This document shows, piece by piece, positions 1-13,699 of a stretch of 64,000 nucleotides of DNA; within the stretch, counting starts at the first letter, position 1, and every line of letters begins with the position of its first letter. The notes under the pieces are model-generated. The model searched no databases and was not told the origin of the DNA. It worked only from the letters and a program-made list of their open reading frames with translations. A program made the position numbers and the translations under genes. Source of the stretch: Leucoraja ocellata (lineage: Eukaryota); contig JAWMAR010000034.1 of the NCBI GenBank assembly GCA_036785375.1, positions 4,712,001 through 4,776,000 on the forward strand, given 5' to 3'.

Positions 1-162
1 ATGGCATTCCCCTTAGAAGATTCAAGAATGGTGATGCCAAATTCGAAGTCCATCTGAATAAGTACTGTAAGAGACAGTAAAATCAGTCCTTTGCTCTTTT
101 ATTGTTTAACATATTTAAAAGTGGTAACATGGACATCGATCTACTTTAATTTCTTGCTACAG

Positions 163-266
163 ACTAAGATTCTGGAATGGAAGAAACACACAAAGTTGTA
201 TTTTCTCAATCGCTTGCATCAGGAGGCTGTTGAAAATGTGAAGTTTTATACAGCACAGAAAGCTCA
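163..266 (+). CDS. Probable internal exon of the upstream TTC3/DZIP3-like gene (TKILEWKKHTKLYFLNRLHQEAVENVKFYTAQKA)
   Basis: Acceptor ttcttgctacAG at 161-162 and GTAAGT donor at 267. Only one frame is open, and the helical peptide resembles the TTC3/DZIP3 coiled segment. The link to exon 2544 is unresolved: phase 2 to phase 0 needs another exon. Confidence 0.55.
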
Positions 267-479
267 GTAAGTTTCAGTACACATTTCACTATTTGCAGTT
301 TACTATTTATTTTCTAATGGTAATTGTGAAAAGTATCTGTCAAATTGATTAGGCTAGATCATCCTGTGTCTGCTTGTCTGAGCTTGCTACCACAATGCCT
401 GTGCAACTCCACTAATAAGTTAGGGATGCAGAGGGCCGACCAATGTGACCTCAGGATCTGCAAACCAGCAGCTAGAAAC

Positions 480-1110
480 CAGGAAAGAGTGCAGAGATTT
501 ACAAGGATGTTGCCAGGACCTGACAGCCTGAGTTAGAAGGAGAGGTTGGGCATGTTCAGACTTCTTTGGAGCACAGGAGACTGAGGGGTGATCTTGTAGA
601 AGTGTATAAAATCATGAGAACAGATAGGATGAATACATTTGTTTAAGAAGGAACTGCAGATGCTGGAAAATCGAAGGTAGACAAAAGTCTGAAGTCTGAA
701 GAAGGGTTTTGGCCCGAAACGTTGCCTATTTCCTTCGCTCCTTAGATGCTGCCTCACCCTCTGAGTTTCTCCAGCATTTTTGTCTACCTAGGATGAATAT
801 ATAGTGTTTTTTACTGAGGATAGCGAATCAAAAACAAGAGGACATAGGTTTAAGTTGAGAGGGACAAGATTTGATGAGAACCTGAAGGGCAATTTCTTTT
901 ACTATTGTTGGTGGGTACATAGAACAAGCTATCAGAGGGGTAGTTGAGGCAGCATTTAAAATACATTTGGACAAGTACATGGATAGAAAAGGTTTAGAGG
1001 ATTACGTCCCAAGTGCAAGCAAAATGGACTAGCTTAAATGGGGCATCATAGTCGGCATAGACAAGTTAAGCCAACGTGCCTGTTTTCATGCTGTACGATT
1101 TTTATGACTC
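480..1110 (+). mobile_element. CR1/HER1-like LINE 3' fragment interrupted by a Penelope-derived insert
   Basis: ERVQRFTRMLPG and RRLRGDL-type motifs, followed by a typical 3' tail. Confidence 0.75.
636..788. mobile_element. Penelope-derived short element with a hammerhead-like core and an 11-bp TSD
   Basis: TAGGATGAATA occurs at 625-635 and 789-799; CTGAAGA..GAAAC at 696-720. Confidence 0.75.
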
Positions 1111-2543
1111 TTGTCTTGGGATGGATCCGGAGGTTACTGTTAAAACCTGGAAATAAGTGTTATCACAAATACTTAAGACAACTAGCAATTAATGAAAAAA
1201 ACAGGATTAGGTAATTAGGGGCGATGTTGCTTATGCCAGGGATCCTTGACATAAAGCGTAGGCGTCTAATGCACTTGCAACTGGGCCGTCTCTTCAGTAA
1301 GTCTGCACTCCTTTATTTTCCTGCCTGTGCTTTGCTATGTGGAATTTAGAGACTTATGGCACAGAAACTAAATCATTAACAAACACTTCAATCATTAGTA
1401 GTCTCTACACTCAAAATAGAGATGCACAGAACCTAACCGGCATGGAATCACCAGCGACAGCAAAGTACAGTGTGGAACACTATTATTTTGGTTTTCGTGG
1501 ACATGTACTGCTTCTATGTTTTTCCACAGCAGAATGATGCAGTGTAAACGTGGTAGACATACAGCATTTGATTGTATTAGGCAAGAAACATAACTAGCAA
1601 TGGGCCAGTACTTGCAAGACAAATGTCCCTTCCTTTATATAAAATGTTATGAGTTATGAATTAAGATGAATGGAATACTTGATTCTTGCTCGACTGTAAA
1701 GTAATCCCTTAATATATCTTTAAAGGAGGGCACATTCTCCAGACGTTGTCACTAGCTGTGACATGTGGGAAAAAAGATTGAAAGGAATTCAAGGACAAAT
1801 TACTCTAATCGAAGTGAGCTGCTTTTTTTTGTCAATTTTAAAATTCTCAGGTTTCAGCAATAAAAGATAATTGACAGATTTGTAAGTACAGTATAAATTG
1901 CATGGCGGTTTTCATTTTATTCTTTACTCTGACTATTACTCCTCTGCTTCTGTAATCTTATCGCTGCTTGCACCCCAGACCTGAATTGTCTGCAAAACCT
2001 TTAACACTGGTTGTAGTCAGTATTGTAACAGGCCCTTCAGCCCACTATGTTCATGCTGATCATCATGCCTATCTATACTAATCCCATTTGCCTGCATCGA
2101 TTGCATATTCCATGTCTTGTTCATTCAAGTACTTGTCCAGATGCCTCTTAAATGTTGTTTCTGTTTTGCCTCCCTGACCTCCTCTGGAAGTTCATTTAAG
2201 ATAACAATTACTCTTTGTGTGAAACATTTACCACTCAGAAATTCCACACAATTCTCCCAAAGACCCATTGATTCCTATCAATATTATTTTTTTAATGTCA
2301 CAAGTTCTTTTATCTTCACGCTTGGCACAAGTCGTTGCTAATGTCACCGCTCTTCTTTTCAACCCCGCTATTACATTACCTTTGGACTGTTTTTACTAAA
2401 TCCACTTTCGGACCTGTTCGTATTAAGTCTCTGCATAATGATGTACGAGTTAGCTCATCAAATATATCTGAAATTGAAATGTTCTAAAAGACTTGCCTAT
2501 TGTGGTGGATTTGACAGGAGTCTAATGACTGTATTTTGCTCAG

Positions 2544-3256
2544 GCTGCCTCTTGGACCCAGGAGACAGGAGGAGATAGTGACAGTGTACCTTACATGGAC
2601 TCCCGTACATTGATGCCACCTCCATTCCGATCTGTGAACAAGCAGCAGGGACTGTCATCACTTCCCACAAGGTCTGAAATGGCAAATAAAATTGGATTTG
2701 CTGGAAAATCTGCCTCTGCTGAGGCTGGTTGGTATTCACCAGGATCCAGAACTCGTGGCGTTGAGGCAGAAATGTCACCAAGGACAGGAAAAGATGCCTA
2801 CATGCCAACTGCTTGGCCACCCAGTTACTTCAAACCTCAAGCAGCACAGCCTGTTCCACCCAGTGGTTGCAGCCGGCTTGATCTTGATCTGGAATTTGGG
2901 ATGAAGCCGCTTCCTGACAGAACTCCCCAGCTGACGACCAGTGGTTTGGAAATGCCAAATCCCTCAATGGAAGCAAAACCTGTAAAAATCCCAGATACAT
3001 CCCTCTCTGGGTTACATACGTCACGGGTTCATGGGAATCCACATAACAACGTTTTTGAGACTTATGGTACACAAATTAAATCCTTCAACAAACACTTTAA
3101 CCATTTGCAGTCTGCACAGCCAGTTATATATACCAATAACGATTTCCAGGCATTTGGTGGTGTATCCGGTGCCAGCAGTTCACAGTCCGATGAGCCTCGG
3201 TCATCCTATCATGCTGTAATGGAGCAACTGTTCTTCAAGTTTCCTACAATAAGCAT
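2544..3256 (+). CDS. Large Pro/Ser-rich exon of the upstream gene, ending at the start of a TTC3/DZIP3/RBM44-type helical domain (SSYHAVMEQLFFKFPTIS)
   Basis: Acceptor ttttgctcAG (2542-2543), open frame containing ORF 2595-3260, GTAAGT donor at 3257. Phase 2 matches the exon at 5304. Confidence 0.8.
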
Positions 3257-3559
3257 GTAAGTTATTTTGCTAACAATCATTAAAAAAAATATCTTGCATC
3301 GTGTTGAAAGAAAGAATTTTGCTTGGATCCATTCAGCTTCCATTTAGCAGAAATGCCGTGAATCTTGGAGTTGTAATCCAGTGACATAAAAATGAACAAT
3401 ACAGATACATTCTCATGATGCCCCATTTACATTCCTTGCTCATCCCTAATTGCCTTTGGGAAGTTGGTGGGGAATTGGCACTTTGAAATGCAGAAGTGAT
3501 TCTAGTAAAGTACTCCCACCATGGTGTATGGTATGGATTTACAAGGTTTAGAATCCACA

Positions 3560-4140
3560 AAGATTCAAGATACAAGAGAGTTTATTGTCATGTGTCCCAG
3601 ATAGGACAATGAAATTCTTGCTTTGCTTCAGCAGAACAGAATATAGTAGGCATGAATACAGAACAGATCAGTGCGTCCACATACCATTATATAAATGTAT
3701 GCACACATGAATAAATAAACAGAAAAAGTGCAAATAAACAGATAATGGTCTATTAATGTTCAGAATTTTGTTTCAGTTAAGTTTAATAGGATGATGGCTG
3801 TGGGGAAGTAGCTATTACTGAACCTGGACGTTGCAGTCCTCAGGCTCATGTACCTTCTACCTGAAGGTAGTGTGTGGCCAGGATGTTGTGGGTCCTTGAT
3901 GAATGCTGCCAGCCTTTTTGAGGCAGCGACTGCGATAGATCCCCTCGATGGTAGGGAGGTCAGAGCCGATGATGGACTGGGCAGTGTTTACTACTTTGTG
4001 TAGTCTTTTCCACTCCTGGGCCCTCAAGTTGCCGAACCAAGCCACGATGCAACCGGTCAGCATGCTCTACTGTGCACCTGTAGAAGTTAGAGAGAGCCTT
4101 GACATACCGACTCTCCGTAATCTTCTCAGGGAGTAGAGGA
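3560..4140 (-). mobile_element. Rex1/Babar-like LINE 3' end
   Basis: Encodes MLTGCIVAWFGN...VVNTAQSIIG..LPTIEGIYRSRCLKKA, followed by a 3' UTR. Confidence 0.75.
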
Positions 4141-4307
4141 TAAAAGAACAATGATGCGACCTGGTGAGGAATCTGCAGGCAGTGGTGACCTCTTGCACAG
4201 TAGTCACAGGTTTGACAAGTGAGATTTTGTGGAAACAAGCAAGTTCATCCCATATAATTGTAGGCATGTGCCCACGGCTTCAGCCCTGTCTGCTTGGATG
4301 GAAGCAG

Positions 4308-4612
4308 TTTAATTTAGCTTAAAGGTACAATGCGGAAACGGGCCCTTCGGCCCACTGAGTCCGCATCGACCAGCAATGCCCGCACACACACTAGGATCAA
4401 TTTTACATTTACACCTAGCCAAATAACCAACACACCTGTACGTCTTTGGAGCAGGGGAGGAAACCGAAGATCTCTTGAGAAAACCTACGCAGGTCATGTG
4501 GAGAAAGTACAAACTCCATACAGACAGCACCCATAGTCGGGATCGAACCCGGGTCTCCAGCGCTGCAGATGCTGTAAGGCAGCAACTCCACCGCTGCGTC
4601 ACCTTGTCGCCC
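4308..4612 (-). mobile_element. tRNA-derived V-SINE (HE1-like)
   Basis: On the minus strand: A/B-box head (GGTTCGATCC), V-domain TTCGGTTTCCTCCC..TCCAAAGACGT and a CR1-like tail. Confidence 0.85.
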
Positions 4613-5303
4613 AGTTGTCCTAGTAACTGGCTTTGAAACAACAATGATTGTTTAGAATGTGGGTATCTGTCAGCTGAAGAAAGTGCCTTGCTGAGAAACA
4701 GTAAGAAAACTTCACAAGTTCATTTTTGGTTCTTTGGGTATTTTTAAGGCGGAGATTGGCATGTTTTTGATTAGTATGGGTGTCTGGGGTTATGGGGAGA
4801 AGGCAGGAGAATGAGGTTGAGAAGAAGACAGATCAGCCATGATTGAATGGCAGAGTAGACACAATGGGATGAAATGCCTAATTTTGCTTCTATGCCTTAT
4901 ATAAGTACAATACCTTTCCAGGCTATTTTGATTGATTTGCGATATACCAGTGCTTTCTTTTTGAGAACAAAAATGTGCCGGTACACGTCTCATTCTTTGC
5001 TGTTAGTGTTTCTGATAAATCGTCGTCCTATAAGCTGCTTAAGCTGTTTAGGGGCCTGACTGGCTAACTTAAATAATACATTTTATTTTTGTAACTTTTG
5101 TAATCTTTTTGTAATATTAAAATTTGAAAGTCTAGCTGTAACTTTTTAAGAGGTGTCGGTGTGCCATATCAGGCATACAATGACAATGAAAGCACTGGGA
5201 TGCACCATATATGGTGCTCAATGATTTTAATGCTTTTAAAGTCTTTATTGCTTGCATTTTGCCTGGCTGTATTTAGACTAATTTTATCTATTCTATATTA
5301 CAG

Positions 5304-5430
5304 AGCCAGATTGCACTTATTTATTAATAAAGTGAAGGAGGAAAATGGTGGCACACTCTCAGGTTTATCTGTGGAGGAGCTGGTGGGACGAGTCTCTTAT
5401 TATATTCACCAGGGCACCCATCCAGAAATA
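5304..5430 (+). CDS. Exon encoding the helical domain ARLHLFINKVKEENGGTLSGLSVEELVGRVSYYIH
   Basis: cAG acceptor at 5302-5303, GTGAGT donor at 5431, phases 2/0 fit both neighbours. The motif FIxKV-x(4)-G-T-LSGLS-x-[DE]E-[IL]VxRV resembles TTC3/DZIP3/RBM44 (recalled, not searched). Confidence 0.8.
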
Positions 5431-6535
5431 GTGAGTATGATTTCACTGCATTCCTAATCACATCGCAAAATCTAACACTGCACAATGCAAGAAAATAATA
5501 ATGTATTACAGTTGTCATCTACCAAGATAGTTGCAAAATATAGTTTCAATTATTTTTATTGGAGCTACTCCTTTTCCCTTTGAGCTCATTGATTAGTGAA
5601 TCTACTGAATCACCCTTGCTTGTGACTTGTTGATCTCACCTGCAGTTGATGTGTAAATACAGCCACACTATACATTGATGACTCTTGAACTTTTCCTCTG
5701 CTGCAGAATATAGTTTTTTGTCATTAATAGTAGAAATGGTATTTAAAACAGCCTGGGTGTGATTAGGCTACCATTCTGGTTGGATCATTGTCGGATGTAT
5801 TTTAAGTCACTCATTTAGAGATAATTAGAGCACCAATATAATGCTTCCTCTATCGTGTTTCTCAGATTTGCTGTGTTGGAATATTAAAATTATGGATGCC
5901 ATTTTGCAGAATAAAAATTACTTTAATTTTATGACCCAGGCATTATGTAATAATTTAACATTTTGATTTGAATTTTTTTAAACTGGGTAGTTTTGAGGAT
6001 ATTAATTCTATGGCTGTCAGATTGCATTTATATTTTCAGGTTTTTATACATATTCAATGCATACAAAGCTGTTAGTTTTGAAACTGCACTCAGCAGCAAA
6101 GAGAGATTGACATTCTAATGAAGGCACAAGAGACAGATGCTGGAATTAGCTGCAAAAAACAACAGCATTTGGAGGAACTTAGTACTGTTTCACAGGCAGC
6201 ATCTGTGAAGGGCAATGGCACCAATTAGCAATCTACTATTTGATAGTTAAAACTATAGATTTATTGCTGGTTTATTGCATTTTAATTGCTAGGAACAGTT
6301 AAATTTAAATGTATTTTATTCAAAACAGAAATTCTTAGTTATTTTATAGCGCTTGTTTAAAAATCTCCAATAAACATAAACTCTAACAACTTGCAGTTAG
6401 TAACTTTCAATTAAACTGCTTTAAATTGACGCCTTCATTGTGCAGTTGCCATAGTTGGGCCAGCTTAATTGTTTTGGGATGCATTTAAAATTGTCAACAG
6501 AATTAACTTTTGCATTTTGTCTCTCTTTCTTTCAG

Positions 6536-6745
6536 ACGTATGCATCTCGAATCGATCCATTATCATTTGCGCCCATGAGCCACGAAAATCCTTTCTTCCC
6601 CAGTCACCACGCTCCGCATTCTGACCAGTCACGAACATTACCGGATGGGTTCAGCGGCCTTGCTCCAGCGGATGCATCTGCTGCAGGGTTTGGGTTACCT
6701 CTTGGAGATTTACTGGAATTGGAAGGCTGTTTTGATGAAATGTAA
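6536..6745 (+). CDS. Terminal coding exon of the upstream gene (TYASRIDPL...LEGCFDEM*)
   Basis: Strong polypyrimidine acceptor ctctctttctttcAG ending at 6535, phase 0, TAA stop at 6743-6745. Confidence 0.75.
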   Translation, partial: TYASRIDPLSFAPMSHENPFFPSHHAPHSDQSRTLPDGFSGLAPADASAAGFGLPLGDLLELEGCFDEM

Positions 6746-8080
6746 AACCACAGAAACAAATTCACAATCTAGGTGTATTATTGTAAGTTTATGTGAACGT
6801 AGTTGGGTAGCATGTGATGTTAATTGCTCAAATTATCAGTGCGACAAAGCAAAAACAACAGACTTTTTCCACTTGCACACAGATGATGTTGTAAATTAAG
6901 TGAAAGTAGAGTGTTGATTCGATCTCAAACATGGTCCTAATTGAACCGTTCCTTTCTGTAAAGCCTGTTCTGTGAACCGTTCGTACAGAAGTCGCATCCT
7001 TGGTTCCACCAAACCTTGATTTGATATTGATTTATTATTGTCACATGTGCTAAGTTACAGTAAACAACGGGTTCTCACCCAATGTTTCAAAAACGGTACA
7101 AAATCTAGAACTACTTTTAAATGTGTGAGATAATGATCATTGGGCAATGTAAAAACAAGGATCTGCTGATGCTGTTTTATATTAAAGACAAAATGCTGGA
7201 GTAACAGGGTTAGGCCACGTCACTGGGAAACACCGGGCAAGCTGGCCCTCATAGAATGTGAAAGAATCATTTTACAGATTACAGCCAAACACATGATAAG
7301 ATAGTGATGATGTTATTGGTTAAGTGGGGTCGTGGGTGTGGATTGATCAGATGGTCACTGATTTTTGTTTCATTTTTGATAGTTGAGATAAAATTAAAGC
7401 AACTTGCAAGAGCTGCAAGATATAACCACCTCCTATTTCTGGCTAACTCTCATTCCAAGTCACTCTGGCAACCACTCAAAGGAGCTCTAATTACTACCCC
7501 TGTCTGTATTTTGCGTGCAGCTTCCTGTAAGTTTAAATGTGTACGGATCTTTTTCATTATGAAGAAAATTTCAATAATTAGCTGGAGGATTCTGTTCCCA
7601 TTTGTGCAGGAAATAGGTTCTGCCTGTGGGTCTTTGCAAGTTGCATACAGTCCAGCTCCCACACACATGGCAATGCGATTGATGCAATCACTCTCCACCC
7701 CCTCCAATTGTATCATTTTTAGCTCTTCTTGCTGCAAATCCAAGAAATGATTCCATCTCATCCATCTCATACACACCATCTTCTCAAGAGAAGATCATGT
7801 TTGATGCTTTATGGTAGTGTTTTAATGATTTGGTTGTAAGCATTTTGAAACACAGATGAACAGATTTCACTGCAACTATGTAAGCAAGTACATTTCCAAG
7901 GGTGGAAAGGTGGAATCAAGGCCGCTATTTCCCTGTGGACAGCCAAACACTGGGTTTATTTTCTTCAGCTCAGAATGTGGGACTGCCAAGCAGGTCAAGC
8001 AGTATCTGTAGAGAAAGAAATAAAGTTAATGTTTCTGGTTGAAGACTTTTCATCAGAACTCACTGACGCAGGAGTATTCT

Positions 8081-8211
8081 TCTTCTTTCGTGTGGAGTGC
8101 ACAGCCTAAAGTTGTTGGACAACTTGTTCTATTTGATCTTCTATTTGTGCACGTCGAGTTGATTGCATTAGTCGAAACAGGGCGGACCACGTGAAGGTGA
8201 TCTTCCACCCC
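8081..8211 (-). mobile_element. Short non-LTR retroelement with a 5' HDV-like ribozyme head and a (GAA)n tail
   Basis: TSD ACGCA(G/T)GAGTATTCT at 8066-8080 and 8212-8226; 3' tail CGAAAGAAGAAGAA, partly overlapping the TSD. Confidence 0.85.
8161..8211 (-). ncRNA. Minimal HDV/CPEB3-like self-cleaving ribozyme fold (P2 damaged in this copy)
   Basis: GGGGUGG-AAGAUC-ACC-UUCACGU-GGU-CCGCCCU-GU-UUCGA-C-UAA-UGCAAUC: P1 with a G1.U wobble, P3/L3, P1.1, candidate catalytic C and the P2 3' strand. Confidence 0.75.
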
Positions 8212-9809
8212 ACGCATGAGTATTCTGGTGATCTGATGAAAAATCTCAACCTTATTTTGGGTAACTTTGGTTTATCGACTGAATATGAATCCAAATATCT
8301 ATTTCCACATCTGACTTTTTACAAACTGTTCTAAAATGTTTTAATTATCCAGCATTCCAACATAAGAATCATTGTGGTACAATACCAACTGCAAATGCCG
8401 AAGATATAATCTTCAAGTAAAACTCCAGACCTTCAAGGTATTCACCAATATGAATTAAAATCAGAGATAAGATCCCTGCTTCACTGCCCCTTCATGATAT
8501 TATATAAATTCCTACACTTTCAGCCATCGTGTGAAAATTCAGGTTAATGCTGCAAACACAATCTATAAATCATTAAGATTTAGGACATAATTAATGGCAT
8601 TGTTGTTATTTCTCATAATCCTCAAATTGTAAAATGATCAAGAGTCAAGAATACACCAGGATACACCATTTTGGCCACTGATATCTGAGAAACGGTATAA
8701 TTGTGGCAGAGTACTATTAATTTTCGGACTCCCAAGATGACACATTCCTGCATTGCACAGCTGATTGTTTGAAATCTGTGAAAAGATAACCCCAGACATG
8801 TCAGTGAGATTAATAAATACCAGACACAACTCATTGGGTATTTCTCTTACTGTTGTGTTCAAGGTGTGTGTGATCTAACTAGAATTTTATAACTCGTTCA
8901 CGATTAAGTAACTGCTTGTGCATAATTTACGTGTTTGGATTCAAAATGTTCCAGATCTGAAATAAAAAGAAATTATAAGCAAATTAAGTAATTAATTGCC
9001 TCCAATGGGACTTTTTTCAGAGCTTTTTTTATTATCTCACCTTACAAAGAGGAGGTTGGTCAACATAGCCAGTTTGTTCAATAGAAGGCAGTTCTGTGGG
9101 GAATGGGGGCAGAAATGGGAGAGGTTTCGCATAGTCTTAGGGCGATGGCCAATAGGAAAAAATGTTCTCTCGTTGAAAAGAGGAGTAATTCATTGATACA
9201 GATTGATTATTGTCATGTGTACACAGAGAGAGTGAAAATATTAGTGTGCTATCCAGTCAAATTATATTGTACATGAGTACAATCAAGTTACACATGAGGG
9301 ACTCTTGAGCGCGAGAGTAGTTATCTAAGTTCATTGCTCCTTTTAGGAATTTGGGGTGAGGATTTGTTCACGTTCTCCAACTTTGTTTTGTTTACATCTC
9401 ACAAAAACTTGCACTTTTAGAAAACATAAAGTTGACCAATAACAATATATATGAAGAAACATGTCAAAATTATCTCTTGCTTAGGAATGATTCCACGAGG
9501 GAGATGGATATGAGATGTAGGTCTGATTTCTTAATGAAAAACAGCTGAGTATTAGAACATCTAAACCTTGAAACTAACTTGTTTTGTGAAATTTAAACAA
9601 CGTTCCTGTGATTGTTCTTGGGGTGGAGATAGATGTGGATGGGAGAGCTGAAGCGATGAGATCTGTAGGGGACCAGGAGATGGTGGCCTGAGGGTCCAGC
9701 TGGGTTGGAAGGCAAGCACCAGCTCAGGAACTTCCCAGTCCTTGTTCCCCTCTAGTAGATAGTAGCATTCGATCCAATTTGTGATCCCAGCTACAAAGAC
9801 AGATGTATA

Positions 9810-11562: not shown

Positions 11563-11657
11563 GTAGACACAAAATGCTGGAGTAACTCAGCGGGACAGGC
11601 AGCATCTCTGGAGAGAAGAAATGGGTGACGTTTCAGGTCGAGACCCTTCTTCAGACC
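11563..11657 (-). mobile_element. Penelope-derived repeat with a minimal hammerhead motif
   Basis: Minus strand reads CTGAAGAAGGGTCTCGACCTGAAACGTC at ~11627-11654. Confidence 0.75.
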
Positions 11658-11679
11658 AGTGTGCTCTTGTTCCACCGGG

Positions 11680-11950
11680 CAAGTGTGCGGCGCTGTGGAT
11701 GCGGTCGTCCTGCACCAGGTCCTCCAGGCCAGTGTGCGGCGCTGCGGATGCGGTCCTCCTGCACCGTGTCCTGGTCCTCCGGGCCAGCGGCTGGCGCTGC
11801 GGCGCGTGTTGCCCGGCCCGGCTTCAGTCGGCGGCCGACGCTCGGCGTGAGGGGCCGTGTTTTCCTAACGTCGGGCGGCGAAGGCGCGATGCCGGGGCTG
11901 GGGCCGGACCAGGCCCGGCGGCAGAGCCAGGCTCCGCTGGTGCTGCAGAG
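11680..11950 (+). promoter_or_regulatory. CpG-rich SNX19 5' region (putative promoter/5' UTR)
   Basis: Dense CpGs around the inferred start ATG, in an otherwise CpG-poor window. Confidence 0.6.
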
Positions 11951-13559
11951 GAAGTGGCTGGGCCTCGGGCTGCTACTGCTGGCCTGCCTCTTGCTCCAAC
12001 TGCTGCTCAACATCTGGTTGCTATGCGCCTGGGTGCTGCTGCTGTTGCTAGGGGGGTGGCTAGGGTCGCAGCTGGTGCTCAGTCCCTCCAGCCTGGTGCA
12101 TCTGGAGAGGTTCCTCAGCCTAGAGCCCTGGCCCATCCAGCCCAACTCCCGGCAGCGTCTAGCCCTGGAGGTGGAGGGCACCATCAGCAAGATCATCAGG
12201 GACTTTGTCAGCTGCTGGTACCAGACAGTGAGTCAGGAGCCAGAGTTTGTAGAGGAGGTGCAGGCTGCCATGCGTGCCATGGCACTGGAACTGCAGAAGA
12301 GGATGGAGGGGGTGGACAGGAAAGCGCTGGCACAGAATGTGCTCCTGCTCTCCGGCTGCCACCTGGAGGTGTACATGAGGGCAAAGAGGGCAACCTGTGA
12401 GAGGACCGCCCGCCAAGATGCTCAATCCACGTGGAAGACGTATTGCAAACTGTGCCAGCCTCACATTGCCTTGCAGAGCCCGGCAACTGAAGCGAATTAC
12501 GCACGGGGCATTGTTGATTTGTTGCTGCATGTACTGGTGCCCTTTCCCAACCTAGAAACACGGACTGGGAGGTTTGTCGTGAGGGAGCTGATCATGTGCA
12601 ATGTGCTTCTGCCCCTTATAAGAAAAATGTCAGACCCAGATTGGATAAATGGTATAATAATAGAAATATTCACAAAGTCCAGCAAAAAGACTGTTGATGT
12701 GATGGAGGAGCCTCTGCCTTTGGAGGTACCAACTTCCCTACTCTTGAAACCCCCAAAAGAGACAGTTGATGAAAGGTTACCATCTCCGAAAGTTACCGAT
12801 TCTCTCAGTAATGATGTTGTTGATAGTTTGGAACCTAATATGGAGGAGACTATTGCATCCGAAGATGGGATTGTGATTAAATCAAATGATAAAGTTGATA
12901 AATCTTCGGAAAATATAAGCTGTCGCTCTGATTACCAAAGACCGGATAAATTAAACCTTTTCTATTCATGTGAGGAATTTGAACCGGAATCTCCCCTTTC
13001 TGTTATGAGAAAAGATTCTGCTGAATCTTTAATATTGTTGATGACTGATGAACTGGCTGGGGACAGATTGTCTCCAACGGAATTAACTAATGCTTCAGAT
13101 GCAGCAGAAGATGCAAGCAGTGACGAACTGGTCATCGGAGAATCCACATTTTTGGATGCAGATGCTATCTTGCCCGCGTTTGACCAAAATCCAATTTCTC
13201 CGGGGCTTGAGCATGTTGTCAATGACAGTGATATGAAAGAAGAGACTTTAGCTAAATTAGAGAATTCCACATCCGCTCTGGCTCATGAGACTATCCGGAT
13301 TCTTTCCAGACGACATTCATTTCAGGAAAAGGAACCTGTTCCAGCAGATGGTTCAACCTGCAACTTCTTAGAGGTTGTATCTACGACGCTCACACAGACA
13401 TCATCTCCTACATCAGTGAGTCTGCCCAGTTACAGCTTTGAACCAATTTGCAGTCCGGATACACCCGTGGTAATTCACAATCTACGGATCAGTGGAACAA
13501 TCACAGCAAAAGAACACAGAGGAGGGGGATTTCATCCTTACACATTATATACTATCAAG
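11889..13559 (+). CDS. SNX19: Sorting nexin-19 exon 1 (N-terminal TM segments, PXA domain, acidic linker, start of PX)
   Basis: Hydrophobic N-terminus; PXA motifs IIRDFVSCWY and LSGCHL; HPYTLYTIK followed by an AAG|GCAAGT GC donor. The start ATG is inferred. Confidence 0.92.
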
Positions 13560-13699
13560 GCAAGTCCCTTTGGATGATAAAACGAATCACGATACTGTGT
13601 TGTTATTCTGTCAACAAATTCTGTTTGAGAGTTTGTGATTCCCGCTATACATCTCTGAGCTTAATTGGTCACAAAGTAGTTCTGTTACTATACTGTAAT

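Follow-up and report, generated by a model that had tools for sequence, protein, structure and literature searches.

The 64,000-nucleotide stretch of Leucoraja ocellata DNA analysed here (assembly GCA_036785375.1, contig JAWMAR010000034.1, positions 4,712,001 to 4,776,000 of the forward strand; hereafter the window, whose numbering is used throughout) carries on its minus strand, at 8081-8211, a short non-autonomous retroelement of 131 nt, recognized from its sequence, from the copies of its family and from an empty site in a related organism. Window 157-6742 holds the last five exons of a TTC3/DZIP3-domain gene, one of which (2529-3254) shows 94% identity to an Amblyraja radiata protein. An open reading frame (ORF) at 11586-13577, forming a long first exon, is SNX19-like, as its motifs suggest. 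The element is located 1.3 kb past the stop codon at 6742, where the first gene ends, and upstream of the SNX19-like ORF, in antisense orientation to both genes.

The anatomy that an earlier note on this DNA had read from the letters is present as it was described. On the minus strand from 8211, the element's 5' end can be drawn as an HDV-like (hepatitis delta virus-like) ribozyme lacking the P4 helix and broken in this copy (8161-8211, G1 at 8211). In the pair table, the P1 5' strand GGGGUGG (8205-8211) is matched by CCGCCCU (8179-8185) and opens with a G1.U wobble, and a P3 of 3 bp, ACC/GGU, closes the L3 loop UUCACGU (8186-8198). These are followed by G37-U38, one half of P1.1, with the 5-nt remnant UUCGA in the place of P4 (8172-8178), by the J4/2 junction CUAA with a candidate catalytic C opposite 8171 (8168-8171), by the P2 3' strand UGCAAUC (8161-8167) and, after about 70 nt, by a GAA tail. 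The P2 5' strand is reduced to four bases (8199-8202), a net loss of 3 nt relative to the 7-nt strand of other copies, and intact copies of the same subfamily, designated A, are accordingly 3 nt longer in P2. The damage already suspected in the earlier note is borne out by a strict fold descriptor, drawn from passages of PMC6326823, which had no match in the window, and by Rfam, where the window copy had no HDV or CPEB3 match and the whole window gave none at the gathering score. Judging from gap counts, the P2 loss is apparently common to the filled sites of the two related organisms described below. This copy, having lost P2, is probably dead.

The flanks carry the claimed 15-bp target duplication with one mismatch, its 3' copy at 8066-8080 and its 5' copy at 8212-8226, adjoining G1. 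Contigs from 4 of 23 listed sequencing runs cover the site. Two of the 23 are on record as RNA, with a share of 0.20-0.24, and one of the four used, marked as possible RNA, is probably DNA. Those from two runs of one organism (X11, X15) join 8071 directly to 8218 and skip 146 bases, the sum of the 131-nt element and one 15-nt target duplication. In two other organisms (X2, X8) the site is filled and position 8217 is a G, which makes the duplication perfect and identifies the T of the window as a later change. The window element is a true insertion. A 15-nt inverted repeat surrounds it (8043-8057 and 8232-8246), giving the empty site the form of a palindrome that resembles a hairpin, and a multicopy repeat occupies 7970-8063. 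Two weak C/D small nucleolar RNA matches in a scan of the window copy (E 2.4 and 2.8) were rejected because the flank is one arm of that inverted repeat next to the multicopy repeat.

The element belongs to a large family. A search of its own genome returned 1,763 candidates (40 scored), the 27-nt 3' motif of its subfamily has 880 exact matches, and 7,215 matches were counted for a 20-nt family core in which one base is degenerate, a count that includes assembly duplicates and misses diverged copies, compared with none for the reversed pattern. At least three subfamilies can be told apart, with identities to their own commonest letters of 98% (A) and 96% (B and C), and target duplications of 7-15 bp flank 69 of 78 rows. 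The P2 strand GAUUGCA, predicted from the damaged copy, is present in 27 of 29 other best copies. The 5' ends, expected to stack at G1, do so: among 22 distinct copies from 30 loci picked by the 3' motif alone, 19 align from position 1-2, and in 16 the duplication ends at most one base from G1. In this 5'-end sample, 35 of 67 full-length rows have a T just before G1, and the target duplications often start with AG or AAG, overlapping the tail. In copies at several independent loci (L091, L094, L106, L109, L112 and L118) the same internal site was hit by another short repeat, whose duplication is visible in the first three, which points to a target hot spot.

As for its source, the earlier note had predicted an autonomous long interspersed element (LINE) with the same ends, and such a LINE is found in the same genome, about 3.1 kb long and with a single ORF of the apurinic/apyrimidinic endonuclease (APE) type. 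It came to light through the 3' motif of subfamily B, four of whose 100 listed matches run upstream into coding sequence. The genome holds some 995 candidate fragments of this coding sequence and 58 candidates for the start of its ORF. Nearly all fetched 3' fragments (29/30) end in the last ~40 nt of the element, and in 14 of 30 fetched loci, representing 9 distinct insertions, the ribozyme and at least 20 further shared bases stand directly upstream of the ORF. Two copies, L255 and L256, are bounded by target duplications and extend from the ribozyme as far as the tail, over about 2.8 kb plus a 0.3-kb deletion. Since the LINE 5'-end loci and 3' fragments match both of its ends, the short element is read as these ends joined: LINE positions 1-77, the last ~45 nt and a short filler, with about 15 nt in the middle that are not simply LINE sequence. 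In the window, the 5' segment, delimited by the LINE 5'-end loci and by L255 and L256, occupies 8140-8211, and the part derived from the LINE 3' end occupies 8081-8122, comprising the last codons, the stop codon (8106-8108), the 3' untranslated region (UTR) and the (GAA)n tail; a 7-bp hairpin is predicted across the deletion junction (8109-8125). Two further copies, L147 and L150, have the same ends as the short element, another junction and more of the LINE 5' UTR; therefore, the internal deletion happened more than once. Two other routes to the partner gave nothing: a LINE search that excluded the short element at positions 39/70 yielded 47 matches, none of them LINE, and none of the 30 loci of endonuclease family PF14529 matched the element. 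Many copies of the partner LINE have an inverted 5' part (L193, L196/L219, L205, L210, L251 and others), in several of which the ribozyme is reversed at the junction; inverted 5' parts are expected from twin priming.

Each relative of the LINE is a single protein, about 1,000 aa long, that carries APE and reverse transcriptase (RT) domains, and no RNase H domain was found in the 120 relatives listed out of 280. Its PQGSVLAP and C-terminal Cys-His motifs point, on what we take to be the distinction between the groups, to I/Ingi/Vingi and not to RTE, so that of the 'RTE/Vingi-type' mobilizer proposed earlier the Vingi half is retained and the RTE half is not. Elements of the Vingi clade (Vingi-2_Gav, of 3,128 nt, and Vingi-1_Acar, as far as their published descriptions go) are likewise about 3.1 kb long, and the same architecture of a single ORF with APE and RT and no RNase H is given for Vingi in sections of PMC13708176. 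An Anolis protein is a 37% identical relative of the partner LINE protein. In the tree, the partner LINE pairs with P0001 (99/99); it stands next to other members of the group and a long way from two other skate LINEs, and its branch lies outside the clade (100/100) in which Anolis P0083 groups with two further skate families, X and W. Viral and prokaryote collections yielded no useful 5' ends, and the protein atlas gave only generic RT names. Some observations weigh against this assignment and the partnership: all copies of the partner LINE seen are broken and have no long ORF, none of 30 LINE 5'-end loci passes the strict descriptor, and the Vingi name derives from architecture, motifs and the Vingi-2_Gav 5' end, in a tree without labelled Vingi, Ingi or RTE proteins. 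Judged by sequence, the partner LINE likely belongs to the Vingi clade. Another skate LINE family, outside the Vingi-like group (L163, L164, L152 and L180), has unbroken frames of 1,133-1,268 aa and is therefore probably recently active.

The fold of intact copies follows the HDV-like plan in most of its parts. P1 forms 7/7 pairs in subfamilies A and B, opened by G1.Y, with G1 at the insertion boundary; P2 forms 7/7 pairs; and P3 has 3 bp under an L3 with the conserved U, C and G. J4/2 is CGAA, of the form C-R-R-A, in subfamilies B and C, and CUAA in subfamily A and the LINE, which departs from that form and matches the RF02682 consensus. The P4 helix is represented by a 5-nt remnant. The P1.1 proposed in the earlier note, GU pairing with the AC of L3, has to be redrawn, given that the HDV descriptor in passages of PMC6326823 pairs G37 with the third L3 base, C22. 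P1.1 would then consist of one C22-G37 pair with U21 opposite U38, in the same letters as the CPEB3 consensus; HDV has two C-G pairs. The strict descriptor was passed by 18/30, 16/30 and 6/30 loci in three samples. Between the commonest letters of the LINE and those of subfamilies A-C, 3 of 54 ribozyme positions differ as against 9 of the next 24 (Fisher p=0.0008), in a sample whose subfamily B rows had been selected for an exact match at 17-36 and that held only 5 rows of the LINE and 6 of subfamily C. The three ribozyme differences are structure-neutral, lying in J1/2, in P1 (U-A to U.G) and in J4/2, which speaks for selection on the fold.

Covariation in P1 and P2, which the earlier note anticipated within the family, is therefore almost nil there, but it appears across distant lineages. 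Two distant lineages from metagenomes, with 30-45% identity to P0001, have HDV-like folds at the same place with a long P4, and retain P1, P2 and P3 with other sequences. In nine rows of three lineages, 93.7% of P1/P3 cells pair (a figure whose control is inflated by related rows) and 4/9 pairs change on both sides; the count is limited to P1 and P3 because MAFFT misaligned the 3' half, and the P2 pairs come from the pair table. L3 UUCACGU and the GU recur in one of these lineages; the other, which reaches 31.7 bits with RF02682, carries GG and an L3 of the HDV type. In the complete copies of one metagenome lineage (L297, L329, L348, L303 and L327) P1 is 6 bp long, an unusual length among HDV-like ribozymes. 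Descriptor searches in this material were less informative: the strict form had no match upstream of 25 metagenome ORFs, the loose form gave noise (26 plus-strand versus 24 minus-strand matches), and a compact form gave 5 matches, one of which (L338) looks like chance, over 558,925 bases, compared with 2 over three shuffles.

Several features of the fold speak against self-cleavage, and they feed an unlikely alternative: that the bipartite origin is the same while the P4-less fold has lost its cutting activity, in which case an internal RNA polymerase (Pol) II promoter would set the 5' end and the fold would be retained as a protein-binding, protective or translation signal. P1.1 has a single Watson-Crick pair, and the sequence would also allow G37-U38 to pair with A43-C44 across a UUCG loop, hiding the catalytic C, a kind of misfold named in passages of PMC6326823. 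Folding z-scores, from a program that does not model pseudoknots, are unremarkable (-1.9 to +1.0), and the intact fold stays below the Rfam thresholds, with 17.4 bits for RF00622, where the cut-off is 35, and 14.4 bits for RF02682, where it is 44. Moreover, the stacking of 5' ends at G1 does not tell cleavage from an internal promoter, because most short elements come at full length in any case. In L1Tc, the equivalent 77 nt act as a Pol II promoter as well as a ribozyme, according to passages of PMC3383444 and PMC4035085, which bears on the 'promoterless' label of the earlier note, and Pol II transcription of bipartite elements was expected by Kojima 2018, in the sections consulted. Against a fold that does not cut, the commonest letters of the LINE and of the three subfamilies agree at C44, A47, U20, C22, C24, G25, G1.U36 and G37 while the neighbouring 24 nt changed as counted above, and J4/2 has shifted to the CPEB3 form CGAA in two subfamilies. 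In this regard, P4-less HDV-like ribozymes do cleave, in silkmoth R2 elements (PMC3774820, in part) and in phages (bioRxiv 10.1101/2023.06.13.544163, in part). On balance, we consider it probable that the element is an internally deleted, non-autonomous derivative of the LINE, combining a P4-less HDV-like fold predicted to self-cleave with the LINE 3' end, and we predict with about the same confidence that its master copies are active ribozymes.

The likeness to the mammalian CPEB3 ribozyme, which the earlier note had thought might bear on the origin of that ribozyme, proved more relevant than claimed, although the P4-less family is the more distant relative and its sister families are the close ones. 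In the covariance search proposed by that note, an intact copy (L074) had RF00622, the CPEB3 ribozyme, as its best match, gapless to position 38, albeit at the sub-threshold score given above; the identities are 21/38 and 6/11 by eye. The family shares with CPEB3 the L3 UUCACGU, G37-U38 and, in subfamilies B and C, CGAA; it differs in P2 and P3, in having no P4 and in being mobile and multicopy, in contrast to a single intronic locus. A search of the skate genome with RF00622 placed 56 of 59 scored matches over the cut-off of 35, the best at 64.7 bits, whereas the cut-off was reached in none of 14 control genomes. The best 20 of the 59 matches comprise 14 of family X, 5 of family Y and one of family Z. 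Nine of the 14 family X loci lead straight into an APE-RT ORF, and three family X copies are complete, 3,120-3,133 nt long, with target duplications; family Z has 6 loci, with no ORF in the copies seen. Contamination with mammalian DNA was rejected as the source of these matches on the grounds that they occur in many copies, carry compensatory changes and run into LINE ORFs enclosed by target duplications.

The closest comparison is with the opossum CPEB3 ribozyme, whose activity is given as 0.94 in a consulted part of the PMC8233481 supplement. By eye, the family Z copy L415 is identical to it at 56/59 positions outside the P4 loop, P4 stem included. The supplement of PMC5786205, in the part available, gives gharial Vingi-2_Gav from nt 2 to 74 and alligator SINE2-1_AMi from nt 61 to 127. 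By eye, the Vingi-2_Gav 5' end matches the opossum ribozyme at 39/40 plus 14/14 positions, 53/54 outside the P4 tip, and SINE2-1_AMi at 59/66. The passages of PMC5786205 that were available do not mention CPEB3, nor do they list Vingi among ribozyme-bearing clades. The Vingi-2_Gav 5' end and the skate fold are alike in L3, GU, CGAA and a 9-nt P1-to-P3 spacing, as far as the printed sequence shows, and the partner-LINE ribozyme differs from it in having other P1-P3 sequences and no P4. The SINE2-1_AMi ribozyme stands behind a tRNA head and has L3 and P1 changes that should disable it; the 'unknown' 3' part of that element ends, by eye, like the 3' end of skate family W.

It could be argued that the likeness to CPEB3 is convergence on the few sequences allowed to an HDV-like fold, or that sequence flowed from the mammalian gene to the elements, and we regard either as quite improbable. 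Convergence would be in line with the limited identity of the window element's own family, since many of the compared positions are catalytically fixed, and R2 ribozymes also carry a U at one HDV C position. Free stem sequences match nonetheless, as in Vingi-2_Gav and in L415 with its P4 stem. Flow from gene to element is opposed by the ribozyme heading every lineage examined (skate, gharial and metagenome animals), followed by the ORF and enclosed by target duplications, whereas the CPEB3 ribozyme, described in the literature consulted as mammal-only, is a single intronic copy reconstructed only to the marsupial-placental split. Because the ribozyme is 5' in every lineage examined and that of CPEB3 is one intronic copy, the direction from Vingi to CPEB3 is the likely one. 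On these comparisons, the CPEB3 ribozyme of mammals was very probably domesticated from the 5' end of a Vingi element. Some of the high identity may be due to horizontal transfer.

The third alternative, a true short interspersed element (SINE) with an independently acquired ribozyme head and only the 3' tail in common with the LINE, has SINE-like size, copy number, tail and target duplications and the ~15 unexplained middle bases in its favour, but is refuted by a head that is the LINE's own 5' end, continuing 20 or more nt past the ribozyme into the 5' UTR, and is opposed by the lack of any A/B-box match in 3/3 subfamily copies under a regular-expression test. The label 'SINE-like family' of the earlier note is thus replaced by that of a bipartite LINE derivative: instead of a tRNA, 5S or 7SL head with Pol III boxes there is a LINE 5' end, the window has no Rfam match at the gathering score, and an element composed of ~77 bases from the start of the LINE and ~45 from its end is not an independent SINE. 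Both ends from one LINE, no ORF, target duplications, a simple-repeat tail and an empty site are the marks of bipartite elements. Known examples, in the passages of PMC5786205 consulted, are the Vingi-1_EE derivatives, RIME (from ingi), NARTc (from L1Tc), SIDERs, the SIDEs of R2 and Bov-A. Like the skate element, these join LINE 5' and 3' ends through internal deletion and move in trans, and in the descriptions available NARTc, RIME, SIDER and SIDE likewise keep an HDV-like 5' ribozyme, in line with the 5' HDV-like ribozymes already described for R2, RTE and Ingi/L1Tc. The minimal HDV-like ribozymes drz-Mtgn and theta and those of silkmoth R2 share with the skate fold, as partly described, the lack of P4, the 54-nt size and the same core. 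Theta ribozymes, however, are associated with phage tRNAs, and silkmoth R2 ribozymes have a J1/2 of 216-498 nt and a 5' end from 28S rRNA, unlike the skate J1/2 of 2 nt and wholly element-encoded P1.

A further property concerns the two ends together. LINE bases 7-15 past the ribozyme are complementary to its 3' UTR, a pairing that has improved to 10/10 in subfamilies B and C; in the window its arms are 8146-8152 (5' UTR) and 8097-8103 (3' UTR). In fixed windows, cognate 5' and 3' ends beat shuffles (p<0.05) in 12/16 cells, and non-cognate ends in 0/32. Family X, which was found after the panhandle had been proposed, pairs in 4/4 cells, with 0/28 for non-cognate ends. Weighing on the other side, the panhandle is not significant for two decayed 5' ends, and the 10-bp bulged duplex of family W is not significant either (28/300). 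End pairing is present in four lineages and is retained by the short element, and the panhandle may be a template-recognition signal.

Taken together, these findings allow us to propose a model in which a host promoter would drive read-through transcription of a master copy, with an internal Pol II promoter possibly contributing as well. The predicted ribozyme would cut before G1 and leave a defined 5' end protected by the fold, and the complementary bases past the ribozyme would pair with the 3' UTR into an RNA panhandle that presents the (GAA)n tail. The LINE protein would then insert the copy by target-primed reverse transcription, whose products are seen as 7-15-bp duplications adjoining G1, the element likely borrowing the endonuclease and reverse transcriptase of the LINE to spread. 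Arrays of ~2-kb units with one short element each (G000:C1:19261567-19274608 and 19413141-19428665) are a candidate source of read-through transcripts. The same 5' module heads the other LINE families of the clade, and the CPEB3 ribozyme would be a fixed, domesticated copy of such a module. We therefore hold, with considerable confidence, that the CPEB3 ribozyme descends from a Vingi 5' end, that the Vingi clade is ribozyme-headed, in forms ranging from 54-nt and P4-less to near-exact CPEB3, and panhandle-closing, and that hundreds to thousands of CPEB3-class ribozymes in non-mammalian vertebrate genomes supply the outgroup.

A literature search that did not take in subscription journals, patents, Repbase notes, hit lists of Rfam and Ensembl or supplements of preprints, where part of this may already stand, found nothing that links Vingi to ribozymes or to CPEB3; the sole match for CPEB3 plus Vingi was 'Tvingi'. 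Vingi-1 is under engineering as an RNA-only gene-insertion tool whose RNAs keep their native UTRs, as stated in passages of PMC13708176 whose remarks on ribozymes concern R2 only; a self-cleaving 5' UTR and a panhandle therefore bear on template design. The end-to-end pairing described here may be the signal by which the template is recognized. Vingi would become a further LINE clade that begins with HDV-like ribozymes, in keeping with the bipartite elements to which it gives rise. The short-element family of the skate, present in thousands of copies, would rank with the smallest HDV-like ribozymes that occur naturally in vertebrates. The CPEB3 ribozyme, in turn, would gain a named donor, the 5' end of a Vingi LINE, together with outgroup sequences that open its origin to alignment and cleavage assays.

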